Shown one piece after another: positions 2 to 17,753 of a stretch of DNA of 64,000 nt. The notes under the pieces are model-generated. The model saw only the letters and a program-made list of their open reading frames with translations. It did no database searches and was not told the origin of the DNA. The translations under genes and the position numbers were made by a program. The first letter of the stretch is position 1. Every line of letters starts with the position of its first letter. Origin of the DNA: a virus; IMG/VR virus record IMGVR_UViG_3300025769_000069. One strand, 5' to 3'.

Positions 2-1057
2 TATGAGAAAACAAAAGATAAATCTCTTCTTTCTAAGATTAACCAAGCTGAAAACAATCAGATGGCCATTAAAATCTTGCTTAACTCTTTATATGGCGCT
101 CTTGCTAATAAGTACTTTAAATATTTTGATAATGCACTGGCAGAATCTGTTACACTTACTGGCCAGACTGTTATCAAGTGGGCCGAGCAATGTATGAACA
201 AAGCCATGAACGATATTACAAAAGCCGATAAAGATTATATTGTTGCTATTGATACCGATTCGATCTATGTCAATATGGGTCCTCTTGTTGAAAAGTTTAA
301 ACCAAAAGATCCTGTTAAGTTTTTAGATAAAATATGTAAAGATCATTTTGAAAAAATTATGGCAAAATCATATGATGAGTTTTTCTTTATCATGAATGGC
401 TATACTCCTCGTATGGAAATGGCTCGAGAAGTTATTGCTGATCGTGGCATATGGACAGCAAAGAAACGCTATATTCTTAATGTGCACAATTCAGAGGGTG
501 TACAATATGCTGAACCAAAACTCAAGATGATGGGTATTGAAGCTATTAAATCTTCAACACCCGAAGTGGTTCGTAATAAATTCAAAGAAGTCTTTAAAGT
601 AATCATAAATAGCTCTGAATCTGAAACTCAATCTTTCATTGCTGACTTCAAACGACAATTCAATAGCTTACCGCCTGAAGATGTGGCATTTCCTCGTGGA
701 GTATCTGAAGTTGAAAAATGGAAAGATCGTAGAACAATATATGCAAAAGGCACACCAATTCACGTAAGAGGATCACTACTATATAATAATAAGTTGAATG
801 ATCTAAATCTTACTAAACGATATGAAACAATCAAGAATGGCGAGAAGATTAAGTTCTTATATTTAAAAAAACCAAACCCTATCAAAGAAAATGTTATTTC
901 ATTTCCAGGGATCTTGCCTAAAGAATTTGGTGTACATCAGCATGTAGATTATGGTATAATGTTTGAGAAGACATTTATTGAGCCATTGAAACCAATCCTT
1001 GACGCTATGGATTGGACACACGAACCAATGGCTACACTGGAGGATTTCTTTGCATAA
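2..1057 (+). CDS. gp43: Family B DNA polymerase (T4 gp43-like), 5'-truncated by window edge
   Basis: [10 protein letters not shown] and IDTDS motifs, KKRY, C-terminal clamp-binding TLEDFFA; frame is open upstream of the Met at 62. Confidence 0.97.
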
Positions 1058-8729: not shown

Positions 8730-8846
8730 ATGGCTAAAGGTTTTACTAATGCAAAGAAGACGTCCATTGGTCGTCGTAATATCAAAACATCATCTATGAA
8801 CAAAGGTAAAAAACGTTCATTTAAAAAATATCGAGGTCAAGGTTAA
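8730..8846 (+). CDS. Small basic protein ending KKYRGQG
   Basis: GGAG RBS; KYRGQG C-terminus seen in marine T4-like phages. Confidence 0.7.
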   Translation: MAKGFTNAKKTSIGRRNIKTSSMNKGKKRSFKKYRGQG

Positions 8847-9526
8847 TGCATGCAAAGCTCATTTCCTATAGCCAACCCGGCGGTCGTATCCACGCAGGCG
8901 AACCAGCTTACAGGGGATTGGATAACATCCAAGACCTCATTGCCTATTGCGCCCGTGTCTCCAATCCATCCAACCAAGCTAACACCAAAACAACGGCAAA
9001 GTTACTTGACTATCTCATCAAGCACAAACACTGGTCACCATTCGAAATGGCAAGCGCCTGCATCGAAGTCGAAACCACCAGAGACATTGCAAGACAACTC
9101 CTCCGCCACCGTTCCTTTAGTTTCCAAGAGTTTTCTCAGCGGTATGCTGACATCCGCGATCTTAATGATAATTTTGTAATTCGTGATGCACGTCTTCAAG
9201 ACACTAAGAATCGACAAAATAGTATTGATACTACAGACGTTGAATTGCAACAACAATGGGAAGGTTATCAAAAAGGAGTTATCAATGCAGCAAAACAAGC
9301 ATATGAATGGGCAATCGAAAATGGAATTGCCAAAGAACAAGCAAGAGTCGTTCTTCCAGAAGGTAACACGGTATCTCGTCTCTATGTTAATGGTACTATT
9401 CGCTCCTGGATACATTATGTCGAGCTACGTTCGGCAAATGGAACCCAAAAAGAGCATATGGAACTGGCGAGGGCGATAGCAGAAGCTATAAGTAAGATAT
9501 ATCCAAAGATAAATATATTTTTATAA
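8846..9526 (+). CDS. thyX: FAD-dependent thymidylate synthase
   Basis: HWSPFE and RHRSFSFQEFSQRY signature. Confidence 0.97.
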   Translation: MHAKLISYSQPGGRIHAGEPAYRGLDNIQDLIAYCARVSNPSNQANTKTTAKLLDYLIKHKHWSPFEMASACIEVETTRDIARQLLRHRSFSFQEFSQRYADIRDLNDNFVIRDARLQDTKNRQNSIDTTDVELQQQWEGYQKGVINAAKQAYEWAIENGIAKEQARVVLPEGNTVSRLYVNGTIRSWIHYVELRSANGTQKEHMELARAIAEAISKIYPKINIFL

Positions 9527-10087: not shown

Positions 10088-10132
10088 ATTATGGGTTGGT
10101 GGAAACAAAAAGATTTAATGAGGAAAAAATAT

Positions 10133-10585
10133 ATGTCTGAGAATTGGGTTGCAGATATCAACAAAATGCACGACAAGTTTGGTGTGCATAAATGGTTTGA
10201 AGAAAACAAAGATAACAAAGATCTGATGCGTAAGTATCTGATGTTTCGTTTGTTGATGTGTCAGGAGGAGTTAAGTGAAACACTCGCTGCTTATAATAAT
10301 GGAGATGCTGAAGAAGTTGTTGATGGTCTCATTGATCTTTGCGTTTTTGCTATTGGCACTCTCGACGTATTTGGTGTTGATGCTTGGGACGCTTGGAATC
10401 GTGTCCATAGTGCTAATATGGCAAAAGAGCCAGGAGTTAAGCCGGGACGTCCTAATCCGTTTGGGCTACCGGATCTACTGAAGCCGGGTGGTTGGATTGG
10501 TCCAAACCACGAAGGTAATCACGGTAATCTTAATGCAGCTATTGACGATCGTCCAGAACCAAATATTGATCGTAATGCTTGGTAA
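10133..10585 (+). CDS. MazG-like all-alpha NTP pyrophosphatase (candidate dCTPase/dUTPase)
   Basis: QEELSE...EEVVDGLID...VHSANMAK. Confidence 0.8.
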   Translation: MSENWVADINKMHDKFGVHKWFEENKDNKDLMRKYLMFRLLMCQEELSETLAAYNNGDAEEVVDGLIDLCVFAIGTLDVFGVDAWDAWNRVHSANMAKEPGVKPGRPNPFGLPDLLKPGGWIGPNHEGNHGNLNAAIDDRPEPNIDRNAW

Positions 10586-11349: not shown

Positions 11350-11703
11350 ATGATTATGCGTGAATCGCTAAAAGTATTACAAGAATGTGCTGAACTCCAG
11401 CAACAAAAATCGCGTGACTATCAAAATGATAAATCACGTATTGTTCAAGCTGATTACTATCCACGTGGTGTAGCTTCAATTATGGATATTATCCATGCTA
11501 AAACTCTTCGACTTTGGTCAGTACTTGAAGCTATGGAAAATGATCCTGAATATAAACCAAACTTTGAGTCTATGGAAGACTCATTCAAAGATCTAATCAA
11601 CTATTCTAGTTTTGGCGTAGCATTCTGTCGTGGTAAAATTCCAGGTCAACGTACTGATCGTGACTTTCTAAATCGTGAGATCCGTAATAATGAAACTGAA
11701 TAA
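11350..11703 (+). CDS. Nucleotide modification associated domain 1 (Nmad1/DUF1599-like)
   Basis: KSRDY...K.LRL...ESMEDSFKDLINY; adjacent to the hydroxymethylase. Confidence 0.75.
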   Translation: MIMRESLKVLQECAELQQQKSRDYQNDKSRIVQADYYPRGVASIMDIIHAKTLRLWSVLEAMENDPEYKPNFESMEDSFKDLINYSSFGVAFCRGKIPGQRTDRDFLNREIRNNETE

Positions 11704-12385
11704 TGTAAACGATATCCGCCAATTCTTTATTGATGAACTTAAAGATGAAGCTTACACCATTGATAAAACTGGTCAAAAGACTATTGAATTAATTGGTGCT
11801 CAGTTTGTTGCAGATGAACCATCAATATTTGGTGTACCTAACCAAGAATACATTGATGCTGAACTGGCTTGGTATGAAAGCCAATCAACTAACATTTATG
11901 ATATTAATGGTAAAATAAAAGCACCACCTGCTGCATGGAAATATACAGCTAATACTCATGGTGAAATCAATTCTAATTATGGCCATTTGATTTTTTCTGA
12001 TAAGTATTACAATCAGTACGGTATGGTTCTAGATGAGCTACAGACTCATCCAGATGGCCGTAGAGCCACTATAGTATACAATAGGCCGTCTATTTGGATA
12101 GAATTTTGTGAAAATGGCAAGAATGACTTTATTTGCACAAATGCAGTAACTTATTATATTCGAGATAATTTATTACATTCCGTAGTCCAAATGCGTTCCA
12201 ATGATGTCATCTATGGATACAAGAACGATTTTGCGTGGCAGCTTTATGTAATGAAAAAATTAGTAAGTGATTTTAATAGTATCGCTAGAATGACCGGCGA
12301 TCATGCTGAAATAGAACTTGGCCATATCATCTGGCAAGTTCAAAACTTACACGTATATGAAAGGCATTTTCACCTTGTCAAATAA
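11690..12385 (+). CDS. gp42: dCMP hydroxymethylase (T4 gp42-like)
   Basis: DFICT and MRSNDVIYGYKNDFAWQ, with the Asp specificity residue as in gp42; LHVYERHF. Confidence 0.88.
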   Translation: MKLNNVNDIRQFFIDELKDEAYTIDKTGQKTIELIGAQFVADEPSIFGVPNQEYIDAELAWYESQSTNIYDINGKIKAPPAAWKYTANTHGEINSNYGHLIFSDKYYNQYGMVLDELQTHPDGRRATIVYNRPSIWIEFCENGKNDFICTNAVTYYIRDNLLHSVVQMRSNDVIYGYKNDFAWQLYVMKKLVSDFNSIARMTGDHAEIELGHIIWQVQNLHVYERHFHLVK

Positions 12386-12836
12386 ATGGGATAAACGTTA
12401 TCTTAACCTTGCTAGAGAAATCAGCACGTGGTCTAAAGATCCATCATCTAAAATTGGAGCTGTAGCAATTGGCTCCAAAGGTCAAGTACTCGCTCAAGGA
12501 TATAATGGTTTGCCTCGAGGCATCTTTGATGGAGAGTCTAGGCTTAGAGATAAAGAAGTAAAATATCAGTATGTTGTTCATGCTGAAATGAATTTAATTT
12601 ATAATGCTACGTATAATGGCGTCTCATTAGATGGTTCGACTTTATACGTATGGGGATTGCCGATTTGTAGTGAGTGCGCAAAAGGCGTGATCCAAGTTGG
12701 GATTTCTAGAGTAGTTATGCCAGATCATGATTTTCCAAAAAAATGGAAAAGTTCTTGGGAGATATCCCGTGTTCTATTTAACGAAGCAGGAATAAAATAT
12801 GACTTTGTTGATATGTGGTCTAAGTCCATCGAATAA
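12357..12836 (+). CDS. cd: dCMP deaminase
   Basis: WSKDPS, GYNG, HAEMN, PICSEC; start uncertain. Confidence 0.9.
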   Translation: MKGIFTLSNKWDKRYLNLAREISTWSKDPSSKIGAVAIGSKGQVLAQGYNGLPRGIFDGESRLRDKEVKYQYVVHAEMNLIYNATYNGVSLDGSTLYVWGLPICSECAKGVIQVGISRVVMPDHDFPKKWKSSWEISRVLFNEAGIKYDFVDMWSKSIE

Positions 12837-13143
12837 GTTCACACCAAAATTAAATGAAGTTCCATCCTTTAAAAAACTAAACAAATGGATGGATTATTTT
12901 GGATATAAGTACTATTCATTCACCAACATAAAACCTGATGGAAAAAATGTGTACATTGATGCAATAATAGATTATAATCTTATTATAGCATTGGGCAATG
13001 AAGCTTCAACTATCTTGAAAAAATTTGGTATTGAACATTTTTCTTTACCACATCCATCGCCCTTAAATAGAAAACTAAATGATAATGATTATGAAATGCA
13101 ATGTTTAAAAGAGTGTAAAGAATGGCTAAGAAAAAAATTTTAG
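12799..13143 (+). CDS. Minimal uracil-DNA glycosylase-superfamily protein
   Basis: GLSPS...IIALGNEA...LPHPSPLN. Confidence 0.7.
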   Translation: MTLLICGLSPSNKFTPKLNEVPSFKKLNKWMDYFGYKYYSFTNIKPDGKNVYIDAIIDYNLIIALGNEASTILKKFGIEHFSLPHPSPLNRKLNDNDYEMQCLKECKEWLRKKF

Positions 13144-14231
13144 TAACTGGATTTAATCACGAGCAAACAAGATACGACGGTTATTTAAGAAAACGAGTTG
13201 GTGTTATTCTTTGTCACTATGGACTTGTTCGTTGTCTTGAAGATATGGACTTTGAACTTACTCAAACATACACTGAGCCAGGAACAGATATTTCTGAATA
13301 CGATCATGTGATTGTTTTTCTACATAATCCACAAGGATTTTGTCAACGCTTATTTGATGGTCTTTGGGCCCTATCTCAAAGACCAGATGCTATTGTTGCC
13401 TTTGATGACTGGCAAGTAAAAGACATATATAATGGTATCATCCAGTATGGTAAAACTTTACGTGAACGTCCTGAGTCAGCATATCGTGGTCATATTTTAG
13501 ATCAGTATCATACAATTAAAGATGAGGCAAAAGTAAAATCATTCAATCAAGCATATCTCGATGCAATTGATATGTTAGAGGAAAAAAAGAATAAAGTTTT
13601 ACTTTGTACGTTTAGTGGCGGTGATGTAGAAAAATTTGGATTAGACTGGAATAAAGATTTACTATATACTTTTAATCCTAATCCATATCACTTAAGCAGA
13701 TCATATAAAAACAATTATGGTATTGAAGAAAGCAATGATTTAACTTCTTTCTTTGATGATTCTCCTGTTGGTCCAAATAAAGAAACAAAAGAAAAAGTTT
13801 GGATATTTAGTTCTCTAGTTCAAACAAAAACTCGTAAGTGGTTAACAAAACTAGATACGCAGTGGGATGTTAGAATTTATGGTGCGCAGCGGGGTGCTTA
13901 TAAGTCTGAACGTTTAACCGAAGATAAGATGGTTCAGGAATATGAAAGTGTATGGGGTAATTTGATGCCAGCATATGATAACATTGGTTCTGGTTGGTGG
14001 AGAACTCGAGTGTTGCAGTGTGCTGAAGCATTCTGTATTACATATTGCGATTATAATGAGGGAATCATCTATGGTGAAGAATATTGTAATTTTACTCCAG
14101 CAGATCTAGAACAAATGGATAAAGAACAACTGTGGAATAAAGCGATTGCTCAGTACGAATGCTTACTAGATAATCACCCACTAAATAAAGATGTAACAAA
14201 GAAAGAATTATTGGAGGTCCTTCATGGCTAA
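13122..14231 (+). CDS. Putative DNA (hmC) glycosyltransferase, GT-B type
   Basis: AFDDWQ, GSGWWRTR; position between gp42 and NDP-sugar epimerases. Confidence 0.6.
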   Translation: MAKKKILVTGFNHEQTRYDGYLRKRVGVILCHYGLVRCLEDMDFELTQTYTEPGTDISEYDHVIVFLHNPQGFCQRLFDGLWALSQRPDAIVAFDDWQVKDIYNGIIQYGKTLRERPESAYRGHILDQYHTIKDEAKVKSFNQAYLDAIDMLEEKKNKVLLCTFSGGDVEKFGLDWNKDLLYTFNPNPYHLSRSYKNNYGIEESNDLTSFFDDSPVGPNKETKEKVWIFSSLVQTKTRKWLTKLDTQWDVRIYGAQRGAYKSERLTEDKMVQEYESVWGNLMPAYDNIGSGWWRTRVLQCAEAFCITYCDYNEGIIYGEEYCNFTPADLEQMDKEQLWNKAIAQYECLLDNHPLNKDVTKKELLEVLHG

Positions 14232-15180
14232 GGTGTTAATTACTGGTGGAGCTGGTTTTATTGGTTTTCATTTGGCGCAGTCAATGCAAGATGATGGATG
14301 GGATGTAGCCTGTCTAGATGATTTTAATGGATTTTATTATGATCCGAATATGAAAGCTGATCGTTCAGAAATCCTAGCAGAACGTGGAATTAAAACATGG
14401 GCAGTTGATATTAAAGAAAAATCAAAGCTTGTCAACGCGTTGGATGCTGAGAAACCGGATGTTGTAATGCATCTTGCTGCTCACGCCGGCGTGCGTCACT
14501 CTCTGGACTATTCTAGACAGTATATTGACAACAATATCTATGGTACGCAAAACTTAATTGAAGCATGTGAAATTGTTGGAGTTGATAATGTAGTATATGC
14601 TTCGACTTCATGTGTTATGGCTGGCAATCAACTACCTTGGAAAGAAGATGATCCAACAAGACATCAACTCAATCCATATGGCTATACCAAAATGACAAAT
14701 GAATGTCAGATGATGGTATCAAAAATCAACAATACAATTGGTCTTCGTTTCTTTACAGTCTATGGACCTTGGGGTCGACCAGACATGGCATTGTTTAAAT
14801 TCACAAAAGGTATCCTTGATGGATCAAAAATTGATGTCTTTAATTATGGTGATATGAAACGAGACTTTACGTATGTAGATGATATTGTTGCTGGGATTAA
14901 AGTTCTGATTCAACGCACTATGGATAGTGACGGTTTAAAGGAAATCTATAATATTGGAAGAGGCGAACAAGTTCAGCTTATGGATTTCATTACTGAAATT
15001 GAAAAGAATTTTGGTCGCAAGGCTGAGAAAAATTTGTTACCAAAACATCCAGCTGATACTCAAGAAACATGGTCAGACACAACTAAACTCCGGTCTTTAG
15101 GTTGGAAACCTACTACTTCAATCTCTGAAGGCATTGAAAAATTTGCTGAATGGTATAAGTCATATTATGGAGTAAATTGA
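14224..15180 (+). CDS. NAD-dependent epimerase, UDP-glucuronate 4-epimerase type
   Basis: TGGAGFIG, HLAAHAGVRHS, YGYTK, RFFTVYGPWGRPDMA. Confidence 0.9.
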   Translation: MAKVLITGGAGFIGFHLAQSMQDDGWDVACLDDFNGFYYDPNMKADRSEILAERGIKTWAVDIKEKSKLVNALDAEKPDVVMHLAAHAGVRHSLDYSRQYIDNNIYGTQNLIEACEIVGVDNVVYASTSCVMAGNQLPWKEDDPTRHQLNPYGYTKMTNECQMMVSKINNTIGLRFFTVYGPWGRPDMALFKFTKGILDGSKIDVFNYGDMKRDFTYVDDIVAGIKVLIQRTMDSDGLKEIYNIGRGEQVQLMDFITEIEKNFGRKAEKNLLPKHPADTQETWSDTTKLRSLGWKPTTSISEGIEKFAEWYKSYYGVN

Positions 15181-15211
15181 ATAAATAGATAAAAATATTT
15201 AGAGGTACCTC

Positions 15212-16180
15212 ATGGCAAAAATTCTAATTACGGGCGGCGTAGGTTTTATTGGTTATCATTTAGCTCTGGCATTAAATAGTGATGGCCATCAAATTTGGCT
15301 TTTGGATAATTTTAATTTATGGGATTCTGTCAAAGGAATAAAAAGAGATAGAAAAAATTTGTTAACAGAGGTCGATGGAATTGACTTTATGCGTATGGAC
15401 ATTAGAAGTCAAGATGAAATTTGGCCGTGGTTCGAAGCACATCAATTTGATACCGCTGTTCACTTAGCTGGCCATGGGATGATAAGAACATCTGCAGAAG
15501 CTGGGAATAAACTTCCGTACGTTATGACTGGAATAGCAGGAGTAACTGAATTAATTGAAATGTTTGAAAGATTTGGTGTTAACAATGTTTTCTATGCATC
15601 TACTGGTGAAGTTGGTCAGGGTAACGCTTTACCTTGGTCAGAATCCGTTCCAATTCAACCAGCATTGAATCATTATACTTTAAGTAAAATTGCAAATGAA
15701 ATGCAGTTTAATATGTCAGATATTCAAAAAACTGTTGGATTGAGACTATTTAATACATATGGTCCATATGGTAGAATTGATATGGCCCCAACTAAATTTG
15801 CAACATGTTTACAAGACAATCTTCCTATTCAAGTGCACAACGAAGGAAATATGTCTAGAGATTGGATATATATTGATGATGCTATAAATGGTATTAAAAC
15901 TATTATGAATCATACTTGGAATACTGATGGTCAAGTACGAGAAATATATAATATTGGTTCTGGAACAAAGACAAGTCTAAATGATTTTATAACTAAATTA
16001 GAAACGGCTTATGGAGTAACAGGCACTAAAGAATTAGTGGATATGGCTTCAGGTGAAGTTCAAGATACACAAGCAGACATTACAAAATTACAAGCGCTTG
16101 GCTGGTCTCCTACTACATCATTAGATGATGGACTAACAAGTTTTGTAACGTGGTTTAAAACTTACTATGGAGTTAGTTAA
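15212..16180 (+). CDS. Second, divergent NAD-dependent epimerase paralogue
   Basis: TGGVGFIG, YTLSK, RLFNTYGPYGRIDMA. Confidence 0.85.
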   Translation: MAKILITGGVGFIGYHLALALNSDGHQIWLLDNFNLWDSVKGIKRDRKNLLTEVDGIDFMRMDIRSQDEIWPWFEAHQFDTAVHLAGHGMIRTSAEAGNKLPYVMTGIAGVTELIEMFERFGVNNVFYASTGEVGQGNALPWSESVPIQPALNHYTLSKIANEMQFNMSDIQKTVGLRLFNTYGPYGRIDMAPTKFATCLQDNLPIQVHNEGNMSRDWIYIDDAINGIKTIMNHTWNTDGQVREIYNIGSGTKTSLNDFITKLETAYGVTGTKELVDMASGEVQDTQADITKLQALGWSPTTSLDDGLTSFVTWFKTYYGVS

Positions 16181-16182
16181 AT

Positions 16183-16557
16183 ATGATAGTTGACGTTGAA
16201 TTGAATTTTTTACATAAATTTTTTGATGAAGTAGAAGAATATGCGCAGATAGATCGCGACATGCTGCATTGCAAAATGTGGGACGGCGCGCCCTGGCCGT
16301 GTCAGCCTGGAGATCAAAGACTTTATCTTTTTAATCACAGAGGACATAAGTCTTTAGCACTTCAAAGTGATATTGAAATAATAGGTAAATGGTTAGAAGA
16401 AATAAATCCAAACACACTAACTTTTTTATCTTTTCCTTGGCACGAGGATAAGGAAGGGGTTGAACCTAATACATGGCCATGTATTCTTCATGTACATTAT
16501 GATAGATGCCATGAGGGTGTTGTTCCAAACCCGCACTGGAATGAACCCAACTACTAG
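16183..16557 (+). CDS. Hypothetical protein
   Basis: ORF track, in operon. Confidence 0.55.
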   Translation: MIVDVELNFLHKFFDEVEEYAQIDRDMLHCKMWDGAPWPCQPGDQRLYLFNHRGHKSLALQSDIEIIGKWLEEINPNTLTFLSFPWHEDKEGVEPNTWPCILHVHYDRCHEGVVPNPHWNEPNY

Positions 16558-16565
16558 TTGACAGC

Positions 16566-17753
16566 ATGATTTATTCTAGTATTGTTCCGTTAATTGGCGG
16601 TGAAACAATTGCAATGGAAAAAGTCTTTGGAAAAAGACCTGAGTACATTCTTTCATATTCAGACTTTACAGCTAATGATAGCCAGCTTCTTCACTATTAC
16701 AATCATTCTGTTCCTTATCTTCTTCTCGATAAAGGTGGCCTTGCTCCTAGTCAGGTTGATGTGGTCAATACTGTCTGTCCTTGTGCAGGTCTTAGTTCCC
16801 TTAGCCCTTCTAGCAGTGGTGATAGTACTACTAATGATTGGATGGTCAAGTCTGCAGAGTATGTGCTCGAATCAGTCCAACCAACTGTGTTCTGGGGTGA
16901 AAACGCTCCACGTCTCGCTAGTAAAATGGGAGCACCAGTTGTCGCAAAGTTACGAAAACTTGCAAAGAAATATGGATACACATTCTCCATCTACAAAACA
17001 AAATCAATCCTCCACGGACTAAGTCAAATAAGAGATCGTACTTTCTATTTCTTTTGGAAAGGCAATCATGTTCCAATTTTTAAATACTACAATAGACCAT
17101 ATACAACTATTGAAGATCAAATCAGATCATCTGCAACAAATGAACTTGATCCAATGTTTGAACAAGTAAATAATAAAGGGAAACCTTCTGAAGATCCAAT
17201 GTATAGATTTGTTCTAGAAGAAATTGAAGGTGGTATGTCTCATTTTGATTATGTAAAGAAAACAAAGAAAACTCATAATCCGTATGATGCTATTGAAAGA
17301 GCTCAGATTAAATATTCTACTGTTGCAGAATGGATGAAATCTGAAGGATATGATCGTGTTGGAGAACGAATGATGCGCATTAATGAAAAGCTTGAATCAG
17401 GCGGAAACATTATGCGTAAAGGTGTTGAGATTGGAAAAGATTACATTGGCGCATTTGTTGGACATAATCCAACTAGCTTAGTACATCCTGATGAAGACAG
17501 ATTTATTAATACTCGCGAAGCTTTAGACATAATGAAAATGCCAAAAGACTTTATGTTACAAGGTGGGATTAAGAATTTAAATATGATTTGCCAGAATGTT
17601 CCCGTTACGACAGCAATGGATATGGCAGAGAATGTAAAAGATTTTCTTGGAGGATCTATTCAAACAATTGAAGCTGATTATATTCTTCAAGATAATAAAA
17701 CACAAACTTACAACGTCGAAAGAGTTATGAATACTCTAGAAGCTTTTATCTAA
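16566..17753 (+). CDS. C5-cytosine DNA methyltransferase homologue with atypical motif I
   Basis: CPCAGLS (IV), GENAP (VI), QIRDR (VIII), CQNVP (X); motif I reads IVPLIGG. Confidence 0.75.
   Translation: MIYSSIVPLIGGETIAMEKVFGKRPEYILSYSDFTANDSQLLHYYNHSVPYLLLDKGGLAPSQVDVVNTVCPCAGLSSLSPSSSGDSTTNDWMVKSAEYVLESVQPTVFWGENAPRLASKMGAPVVAKLRKLAKKYGYTFSIYKTKSILHGLSQIRDRTFYFFWKGNHVPIFKYYNRPYTTIEDQIRSSATNELDPMFEQVNNKGKPSEDPMYRFVLEEIEGGMSHFDYVKKTKKTHNPYDAIERAQIKYSTVAEWMKSEGYDRVGERMMRINEKLESGGNIMRKGVEIGKDYIGAFVGHNPTSLVHPDEDRFINTREALDIMKMPKDFMLQGGIKNLNMICQNVPVTTAMDMAENVKDFLGGSIQTIEADYILQDNKTQTYNVERVMNTLEAFI

Follow-up and report, generated by a model that had tools for sequence, protein, structure and literature searches.

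A phage protein of predicted C5-cytosine methyltransferase fold with a remodelled putative cofactor pocket, found with hydroxymethylcytosine pathways

What could a cytosine C5-methyltransferase be doing in a phage whose cytosines are expected to carry a group at C5 already? The question is raised by a gene at positions 16566-17753 of a 64,000-nucleotide stretch of the IMG/VR virus record IMGVR_UViG_3300025769_000069 (hereafter the window; statements about whole genomes are drawn from related records). Judged by its sequence, the source is expected to be a T4-like marine phage in whose DNA hydroxymethylcytosine (hmC) takes the place of cytosine. The family of the encoded protein, P0001, joins intact covalent cytosine chemistry to a conserved, non-canonical pocket and accompanies hydroxymethylcytosine pathways in all the genomes examined; it may carry out a step in DNA modification that has not yet been described. 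Phage DNA hypermodification is a rich source of enzymology and of tools for epigenetic sequencing—T4 beta-glucosyltransferase, TET, CmoX, and 5-methylcytosine (5mC)-selective deaminases are examples—and a literature search of a limited paper collection found no description of this methyltransferase-like subfamily.

Fold, catalytic residues, and cofactor pocket

The gene under study is the following:

16566..17753, + strand: C5-methyltransferase-fold gene (P0001, 395 amino acids), an open reading frame (ORF) and the last gene of the + strand block

The start codon lies 8 nucleotides after the preceding stop, and the opposite strand of the interval holds many stop codons. Convergent - strand ORFs lie on the 3' side, so the gene closes a co-directional + strand block; with a T4 gp42-type hydroxymethylase upstream, this agrees with the sequence-only reading of the locus, which had placed the gene at the end of an hmC operon.

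P0001 passes the PF00145 profile of C5-methyltransferases (E 6.8e-13; 49.2 bits against a gathering cut-off of 22), with an alignment limited to residues 61-358 that leaves motifs I-III outside the match. The NCBIfam dcm profile (TIGR00675) gives 26.5 bits, under its cut-off of 100.65. Modelling predicts a two-domain C5-cytosine methyltransferase fold: the AF2 model, built from a 105-sequence alignment, has a mean predicted local distance difference test (pLDDT) score of 96, and Foldseek matches it to this fold with probability 1.00. Superposed with VIA-align, the model reaches Z 25.6 to M.HaeIII (1dct; root-mean-square deviation (rmsd) 3.0, 276 residues) and Z 25.2 to M.HhaI; over M.HaeIII, M.HhaI, DNMT1, and CmoX the values are Z 23-26 and rmsd ~3 Å for 280-330 residues.

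Conservation was counted in an alignment of 105 full-length representatives that are 28-56% identical. The catalytic motifs are these:

16779..16784, + strand: motif IV Pro72-Cys73 (CPC at 71-73), the catalytic nucleophile, aligned to the PC of HhaI and HaeIII; P72 in 95/105, C73 in 104/105
16899..16904, + strand: motif VI Glu112-Asn113 (GENAP at 111-115, where ENA replaces ENV); E112 in 105/105, N113 in 103/105
17025..17039, + strand: motif VIII QIRDR (154-158); R156 and R158 invariant, Q154 in 102/105

Motif IX is also kept (R312...E318), and the residues of motifs IV, VI, VIII, and IX are 90-100% conserved in the family. With no variation at E112, R156, and R158, and with C73 lacking in one sequence only, the machinery for base flipping and for attack of the cysteine on C6 is under strong selection. 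From its sequence, P0001 would have every residue needed to flip a cytosine and to attack it at C6 with Cys73.

The putative cofactor pocket is a different matter. The sequence-only reading had described PC, EN, and QxRxR motifs that were retained next to a rewritten S-adenosylmethionine (SAM) binding motif—IVPLIGG as motif I—and CQNVP as motif X. All of these can be read in the translation and are fixed across the 105 relatives, and the rewriting turns out to be wider than motifs I and X; the pocket is predicted to be altered at nearly every canonical SAM contact, with the changes fixed family-wide:

16581..16601, + strand: motif I IVPLIGG (6-12), replacing canonical LFxGxGG; P8 in 104/105, L9 in 103/105, G11 in 105/105, G12 in 102/105
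16653..16658, + strand: Ser30-Tyr31 at the end of strand beta2, the motif II site (HhaI E40-W41, CmoX E47-F48); Ser in 92 and Thr in 8 of 105 at position 30, Tyr, Phe, or Trp in 100/105 at position 31
16728..16730, + strand: Asp55 after strand beta3 (strand 51-53), motif III-like; Asp in 74, Glu in 8, and Asn in 8 of 105
16833..16841, + strand: Asn90-x-Trp92, replacing G-x-L of motif V (HhaI G98, L100) in a profile alignment to HhaI; N90 in 101/105, W92 in 87/105
17589..17603, + strand: motif X CQNVP (342-346), replacing canonical GN(A/S)V in alignments to 8yf3, HaeIII, and HhaI; Q343 in 102/105, N344 in 100/105

The first ~40 residues were not aligned to canonical or solved C5-methyltransferases by searches with the single sequence or with the family profile. 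Motif I was placed by the N-terminal offset of the VIA-align superposition (model residue 1 falls on HhaI residue 12) together with model secondary structure, which equates F18-A19-G20-L21-G22-G23 of HhaI with V7-P8-L9-I10-G11-G12. In the model these residues belong to a beta1-loop-alphaA element (strand 3-6, loop 7-11, helix 12-21); the motif I Phe has become Val or Ile and the first Gly has become Leu, and the Pro-Leu pair is fixed in 103-104 of the 105 relatives. Strand 28-30 and helix 32-44 follow, with no conserved acid at positions 30-36, and Ser/Thr30 appears to replace the ribose-binding acid of motif II. At motif X, the profile alignment sets iGNAVPV of HaeIII against icQNVPV of the family; Gln343 falls on HhaI N304 and CmoX R350, and Asn344 on HhaI S305. 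The Gln343 site is one that contacts the transferred group, both in CmoX (R350) and in M.MpeI N374K. In HhaI numbering, then, the pocket has V/I for F18, L for G20, S for E40, W for L100, Q for N304, and N for S305; what stays is the Gly-Gly turn, the aromatic residue of beta2, and the motif III Asp. Across the 105 relatives, conservation at these altered positions is as high as at the catalytic residues.

Compared with M.HhaI and M.HaeIII, the family shares the fold (Z ~25) and motifs IV, VI, VIII, and IX, and presumably base flipping and Cys-C6 catalysis with them. It differs in its rewritten motifs I, II, V, and X, in a helical target-recognition domain, and in its setting, being phage-only, without a restriction partner, and in genomes that pre-modify C5. 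One explanation is nonetheless that P0001 methylates C5 in the ordinary way, dependent on SAM and specific for a sequence, and that its SAM motifs have drifted—it would be a phage orphan methylase for anti-restriction, placed among nucleotide-metabolism genes as T4 dam is placed beside gene 56. The PF00145 score above the gathering cut-off supports it, the Gly-Gly turn, the aromatic residue, and Asp55 are compatible with adenine binding, and motif I variants containing Pro bind SAM in DNA amino-methyltransferases. Against drift stands the fact that all five cofactor-contact changes are fixed by selection.

The closest solved relative suggests another explanation. SpCmoX is the DNA cytosine C5-carboxymethyltransferase of Synechococcus phage S-B43 (PDB 8YF3; PMC12783734), and a CmoX-like P0001 would use a SAM analogue, carboxy-SAM or another, to put a different handle on cytosine. 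SpCmoX (8yf3) is both the best PDB sequence match and the top Foldseek match; it too is phage-encoded with a C5-methyltransferase fold, is 20% identical to P0001 where the structures align, and shares a homologous helical region for target recognition. Its function changed through the residue of motif X in contact with the transferred group; this residue selects that group, and it is also changed in P0001. The details of the two pockets diverge, however. CmoX has the canonical adenosine contacts F25, E47/F48, and D69, along with SPPC and an Arg350 that contacts the carboxymethyl group, where this family has IVPLIGG, Ser30, VCPC, and Gln343-Asn344; of the adenosine contacts, F25 and E47 are lost. 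CmoX also travels with CmoA and a ligase, whereas this family travels with dCMP (deoxycytidine monophosphate) hydroxymethylase; CmoA (TIGR00740) was not found in five related records, two of them complete. The sequence-only reading had listed carboxy-SAM among the cofactors to be tested. With Gln, and neither Arg nor Lys, at the key position, and with no CmoA in the phage records searched, this option is weakened; we consider a CmoX-like reaction very unlikely.

Association with the hydroxymethylcytosine pathway

The family is phage-only and large. A search of 1.84 billion representatives returned 754 relatives, 248 of them under E 1e-30, and a word-indexed search returned 2,468 relatives of P0001; there are at least 248 clusters at 50% identity, and the family is abundant in marine and freshwater viromes. 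Among 185,579 prokaryotic species genomes (one genome each) there were 15 matches, all on contigs of metagenome-assembled genomes (MAGs), and the scan did not find the family in bacterial restriction-modification contexts. Matches in the ESM Atlas are viral C5-methylase clusters only, and megablast with the operon gave no close phage record. A search for fusion partners yielded a single case, P0218, which has a CXXC zinc finger at its C-terminus (PF02008, E 6.6e-7); such fingers are otherwise typical of eukaryotic CpG-binding proteins, and the fusion is consistent with DNA as the substrate.

A distant relative, 27% identical, is seen in Bacillus phage G (gp301, L111:3755-5035) and in L113. Its motifs I and II are more canonical and its motif X has Gln (IAQGVP); an alpha-glucosyltransferase lies five genes off and a thymidylate synthase (TS) homologue of the Asp type lies 13 kb off. 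Phage G gp301 may be an intermediate form of the family.

Which pathway the window encodes can be judged from its dCMP hydroxymethylase, a homologue of T4 gp42. The enzyme shares 51% identity with T4-type enzymes and only 25% with those of Mosigvirus (RB69-type), which make 5-hydroxy-dCMP (PMC13326640). Given these identities, 5-hydroxymethyl-deoxycytidine is the expected base in this phage, and synthesis of 5-hydroxycytosine in the RB69 manner was rejected for this TS homologue.

The sequence-only reading had asked whether the subfamily co-occurs with homologues of gp42, and it does in the loci and genomes described here. Synteny was sampled in 80 IMG/VR loci with close relatives, of which 27 were informative (at least 5 kb of upstream flank). 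A gp42-like gene lies upstream on the same strand, 2.2-7.0 kb away, in 27/27 of these loci, and the same synteny is seen in 10 of the 11 MAG loci whose upstream flank is 4.6 kb or longer. Beyond close relatives, all 10 of 10 large or complete records encode an Asp-type TS homologue, dCMP-specific by virtue of an Asp at the position of E. coli N177. These ten come from several lineages, including S-TIM5-like cyanophages (S-TIM54), Pseudoalteromonas phage XG4, Bacillus phage G, and a freshwater phage, and the methyltransferase-like relatives in the distant records among them are only 27-35% identical. A gp42-like or other Asp-type TS homologue is present at every informative locus and genome examined; the subfamily did not prove common in phages that lack a dCMP hydroxymethylase.

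The family member on one contig assigned to a freshwater MAG (L104, 84.6 kb) looked like an exception, the contig having a canonical Asn-type ThyA only. It is explained by a relative of this family member that is 89% identical and lies in a complete genome of 153 kb (G008), where an Asp-type TS homologue is encoded 40 kb from the methyltransferase-like gene. De novo hydroxymethylation at the DNA level without any TS homologue, considered as a candidate function, was dropped once G008 had resolved L104. In both G008 and L104 the methyltransferase-like gene stands beside genes for DNA-level enzymes—a kinase resembling 5-hydroxymethyldeoxyuridine (5-hmdU) DNA kinase (HMUDK-like) and the protein cluster c10—and away from the TS homologue.

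In the annotation of cyanophage S-TIM54, a gene named ThyA (L001:5114-5956) encodes Asp where the E. coli enzyme has Asn177 (GVPLDMFRY); its product is therefore probably a dCMP-modifying enzyme and not a dTMP synthase.

The strict co-occurrence bears on two of the explanations. To an ordinary methylase hmC DNA would offer almost no substrate; the co-occurrence with Asp-type TS homologues across lineages and the family's absence from bacterial restriction-modification contexts also speak against one. In its favour, the gene adjoins a gp56-like dCTPase in XG4 and L085, as dam does in T4. The sequence-only reading had allowed for action on residual unmodified cytosine, and ordinary SAM-dependent methylation of such cytosine may still take place; the orphan methylase with drifted motifs has, in our estimate, a small chance of being correct.

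The second explanation is that the enzyme acts on 5-hydroxymethylcytosine (5hmC) itself. Cys73 would add to C6 of a flipped 5hmC, the hydroxyl or an activated leaving group would depart, and the resulting exocyclic methylene would be trapped by a nucleophile or lost as formaldehyde, with no SAM involved; the rebuilt pocket would hold the 5-substituent together with water or a nucleophile. This fits the strict co-occurrence, the place of Gln343/Asn344 at the C5 substituent or transferred group, the loss of the ribose-binding acid and of the motif I Phe, and the company the gene keeps in G008 and L104, where it stays with DNA-level enzymes and not with the TS homologue. A precedent exists as well: as a side reaction, canonical C5-methyltransferases bond covalently to DNA containing 5hmC and take off its hydroxymethyl group (PMC11347137). 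The sequence-only reading had named such removal by cofactor-free enzymes in vitro when suggesting a non-methylating editing enzyme. Several points argue the other way. The content between the deaminase gene and the methyltransferase-like gene differs by phage, with the latter as the constant last gene; because the pocket residues are constant across these cassettes, the ligand of the protein is not a cassette-specific group, and since the cassettes attach very different groups, a trapping nucleophile would need to be universal. Moreover, the Gly-Gly turn, the beta2 aromatic residue, Asp55, and Trp92 still resemble a site for a planar ligand, and neither removal nor exchange of the hydroxymethyl group brings an evident benefit. 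We regard 5hmC processing, and the pocket contents it implies, as a serious competitor that is unlikely rather than probable.

The C-terminal tail and a proposed role on newly replicated DNA

New in this analysis is a polymerase-type tail, found on the methyltransferase-like protein and, within the cassettes, on the DNA-acting enzymes only. The two tails in the window are:

17733..17750, + strand: C-terminal tail TLEAFI (protein end NTLEAFI) of the methyltransferase-like protein, of the polymerase (clamp-binding) type
1034..1054, + strand: C-terminal tail TLEDFFA (protein end ATLEDFFA) of DNA polymerase gp43 (ORF 62-1057), for comparison

T4 gp43 ends in ASLDFLFG. We expressed the tail as the motif [ST]L[ED]x[FLM][FLMIA] and looked for it in all window ORFs of at least 50 amino acids (n=263); it ends two of them, gp43 and the methyltransferase-like protein, and these two are also the only ones to end with the form [ST]L[ED]xF[FLMI]. 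The tail is found in 99/120 close homologues and in few distant ones, and among 1,475 ORFs of 19 related loci the strict motif is almost confined to polymerases, the methyltransferase-like family, and the gene just upstream. Among cassette clusters, it ends 30/33 homologues of T4 alpha-glucosyltransferase (alpha-GT), 3/4 HMUDK-like kinases, 2/3 TET-associated glycosyltransferases (TAGT), and 4/4 c10 proteins; it ends none of the sugar-nucleotide enzymes of the cassettes (0/35 short-chain dehydrogenases/reductases, 0/18 UDP-glucose dehydrogenases, others likewise).

Examples of [GST]LEEFF-type tails can be seen at L079:6978-8225, L071:4420-5484, L070:9024-10004, and L081:9178-9999, which belong to the alpha-GT, kinase-like, TAGT, and c10 sets.

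On the strength of the polymerase-type tail we propose that P0001 is recruited to a gp45-type sliding clamp on phage DNA; clamps of this type are encoded in related complete genomes. Clamp-recruited enzymes of this fold have a counterpart in DNMT1, which PCNA brings to nascent DNA for maintenance methylation. The analogy extends to clamp recruitment of a C5-methyltransferase fold on nascent DNA; the origin is separate, the SAM site of DNMT1 is canonical, and the role it serves is epigenetic, not one of anti-defence. A phage precedent is T4 alpha-GT, which co-purifies with gp45, whereas beta-GT does not (PMC13216743). Like P0001, alpha-GT is a DNA-level enzyme of an hmC phage, and its cassette homologues carry the same tail as P0001 and the polymerase; unlike P0001, it has a GT-B fold and unrelated chemistry, and for P0001 the proposed clamp binding follows from the tail only. 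The sharing of the tail suggests a whole tool-belt of DNA-modifying enzymes carried on the sliding clamp in these phages, which would widen the single precedent of T4 alpha-GT.

The tail bears directly on a further explanation, in which the target is host DNA: host DNA, still containing cytosine, would be damaged, marked, or deaminated by the enzyme, and modified phage DNA would be immune. Cytosine is abundant only in host DNA, and C5-methyltransferases deprived of SAM promote C-to-U deamination. A polymerase-type tail, common to the glycosyltransferases that act on hmC, points instead to phage replication forks, and no toxin-like context was seen. Because of this clamp-binding type of tail, host DNA, which the sequence-only reading had named as one possible target, becomes less likely, and we now give it hardly any credence.

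The reading we favour, tentatively and as somewhat less than an even bet, is that of a clamp-tethered enzyme acting on escaped cytosines with a one-carbon donor. Riding a gp45-type clamp, the enzyme would act on newly replicated phage DNA beside the hmC-modifying enzymes that bear the same tail. Cys73 would covalently activate cytosines that had escaped pre-replicative replacement, and a donor bound in the altered pocket would supply a one-carbon unit, which would make the replacement of cytosine complete. With SAM as the donor, bound in a non-canonical pose, the product would be 5mC; with methylene-tetrahydrofolate it would be 5hmC, formed by TS-like chemistry. We rate the two options about equal.

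Several observations weigh against this proposal. Of 34 close gp42 loci whose downstream flank is 9 kb or longer, 26 carry the methyltransferase-like gene and 8 lack it, and no homologue of the protein was found in T4 or RB69-type coliphages, which makes it a frequent rather than an obligatory partner of the pathway. The arrangement in G008 fits a role in hmC processing equally well. The proposal supposes that unmodified cytosine would persist in the phage DNA, and a candidate dCTPase is encoded just upstream; a mop-up enzyme would, in addition, need low sequence specificity. As for the pocket, Ser30 is assigned to the motif II site from model secondary structure and the N-terminal offset, not from residue-level superposition.

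Common to the clamp-tethered reading with a folate donor and to 5hmC processing is the idea that the enzyme uses no SAM. It would then be the first natural enzyme of the C5-methyltransferase fold with non-methylating chemistry, a prospect we take seriously while thinking it a little more apt to fail than to hold. The enzyme may ride the clamp and hydroxymethylate DNA cytosine at C5 with carbon from methylene-tetrahydrofolate, performing TS chemistry on a methyltransferase scaffold, or it may activate 5-hydroxymethylcytosine in DNA through a Cys-C6 adduct. The sequence evidence argues for an enzyme that acts on DNA, is probably coupled to the replisome, and depends on its covalent cytosine chemistry; the rebuilt pocket would hold a specific ligand, and selection maintains the enzyme only in phages whose deoxycytidine is pre-modified at C5. 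If the donor is not SAM, or if the substrate is 5hmC, the family would represent a new reaction class for this fold and a possible reagent for site-directed derivatisation of DNA. Some cultured phages, namely S-TIM5-like cyanophages and Pseudoalteromonas phage XG4, encode homologues, so the function is directly testable.

Neighbouring genes and variable cassettes

The genes upstream of the methyltransferase-like gene, in order, are:

8846-9526, + strand: ThyX-like gene
10091..10585, + strand: nucleotide pyrophosphohydrolase of the MazG/PRA-PH type (phrog_671, PF01503), a candidate dCTPase
11675..12385, + strand: T4 gp42-like dCMP hydroxymethylase, an Asp-type TS homologue (PDB 1b49, E 2.7e-69); KNDFAWQ retains the equivalent of T4 Asp179
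12318..12836, + strand: dCMP deaminase (PF00383, E 1.1e-16; phrog_174)
12799..16557, + strand: variable cassette of o114, o369 (phrog_14998), two genes for NAD-dependent sugar epimerases/dehydratases, and o124

A domain of the MazG/PRA-PH type has been tied to modified-cytosine contigs by MetaGPA (PMC8670742). Two small conserved genes, at 11350-11703 and 12799-13143, flank the hydroxymethylase and deaminase genes and recur in many related loci; one is weakly similar to DUF1599 ('nucleotide modification associated domain 1', E 6e-4) and the other, also weakly, to the uracil-DNA-glycosylase superfamily (E 9e-4).

One form of the cassette in related loci contains homologues of T4 alpha-glucosyltransferase (32 loci). 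Other variants encode TAGT, UDP-galactopyranose mutase, or UDP-glucose dehydrogenase; an HMUDK-like protein with a protein resembling inositol-phosphate synthase; or RB69-like sugar-activation genes with two glycosyltransferases. A search for TET/JBP (PF12851) gave no match in five related records, but none in control genomes either; TAGT-type glycosyltransferases are present in some cassettes.

The variant with kinase and synthase is found in L070, L071, L074, L078, L104:8155-11426, and L114, where a gp42-like gene is accompanied by genes for a 5-hmdU-DNA-kinase-like protein (PF18723) and an inositol-1-phosphate-synthase-like protein; L104 also has an FkbM methyltransferase. This cassette is a candidate pathway that would phosphorylate 5hmC in DNA and then substitute it.

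Blocks in Pseudoalteromonas phage XG4 (L002:100-7552) and in L085:4605-11799 are laid out like the arabinosylation clusters of RB69 and DLP3, with a HAD-like phosphatase, a nucleotidyltransferase-kinase fusion, and two glycosyltransferases. Unlike those clusters, they contain a T4 gp42-like TS homologue and the methyltransferase-like gene, with an adjoining gp56-type dCTPase.

Relatives without the methyltransferase-like gene (L162:12239-15229, L156, L171, L154, and L151) have another cassette after the deaminase. It encodes a protein of 391-423 amino acids, a protein resembling pyridoxal phosphate (PLP) enzymes, and a protein of 317 amino acids, and is followed directly by a ribosomal protein S21 homologue and uvsX.

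Finally, one or two pairs of radical-SAM-like and SPASM-domain genes (L013:3443-4177 and L018:4215-4529, with homologues in L015, L017-L021, L031, and L079) sit between the dCMP deaminase gene and the alpha-glucosyltransferase homologue; their Pfam matches are weak (E 1e-3 to 4e-4).

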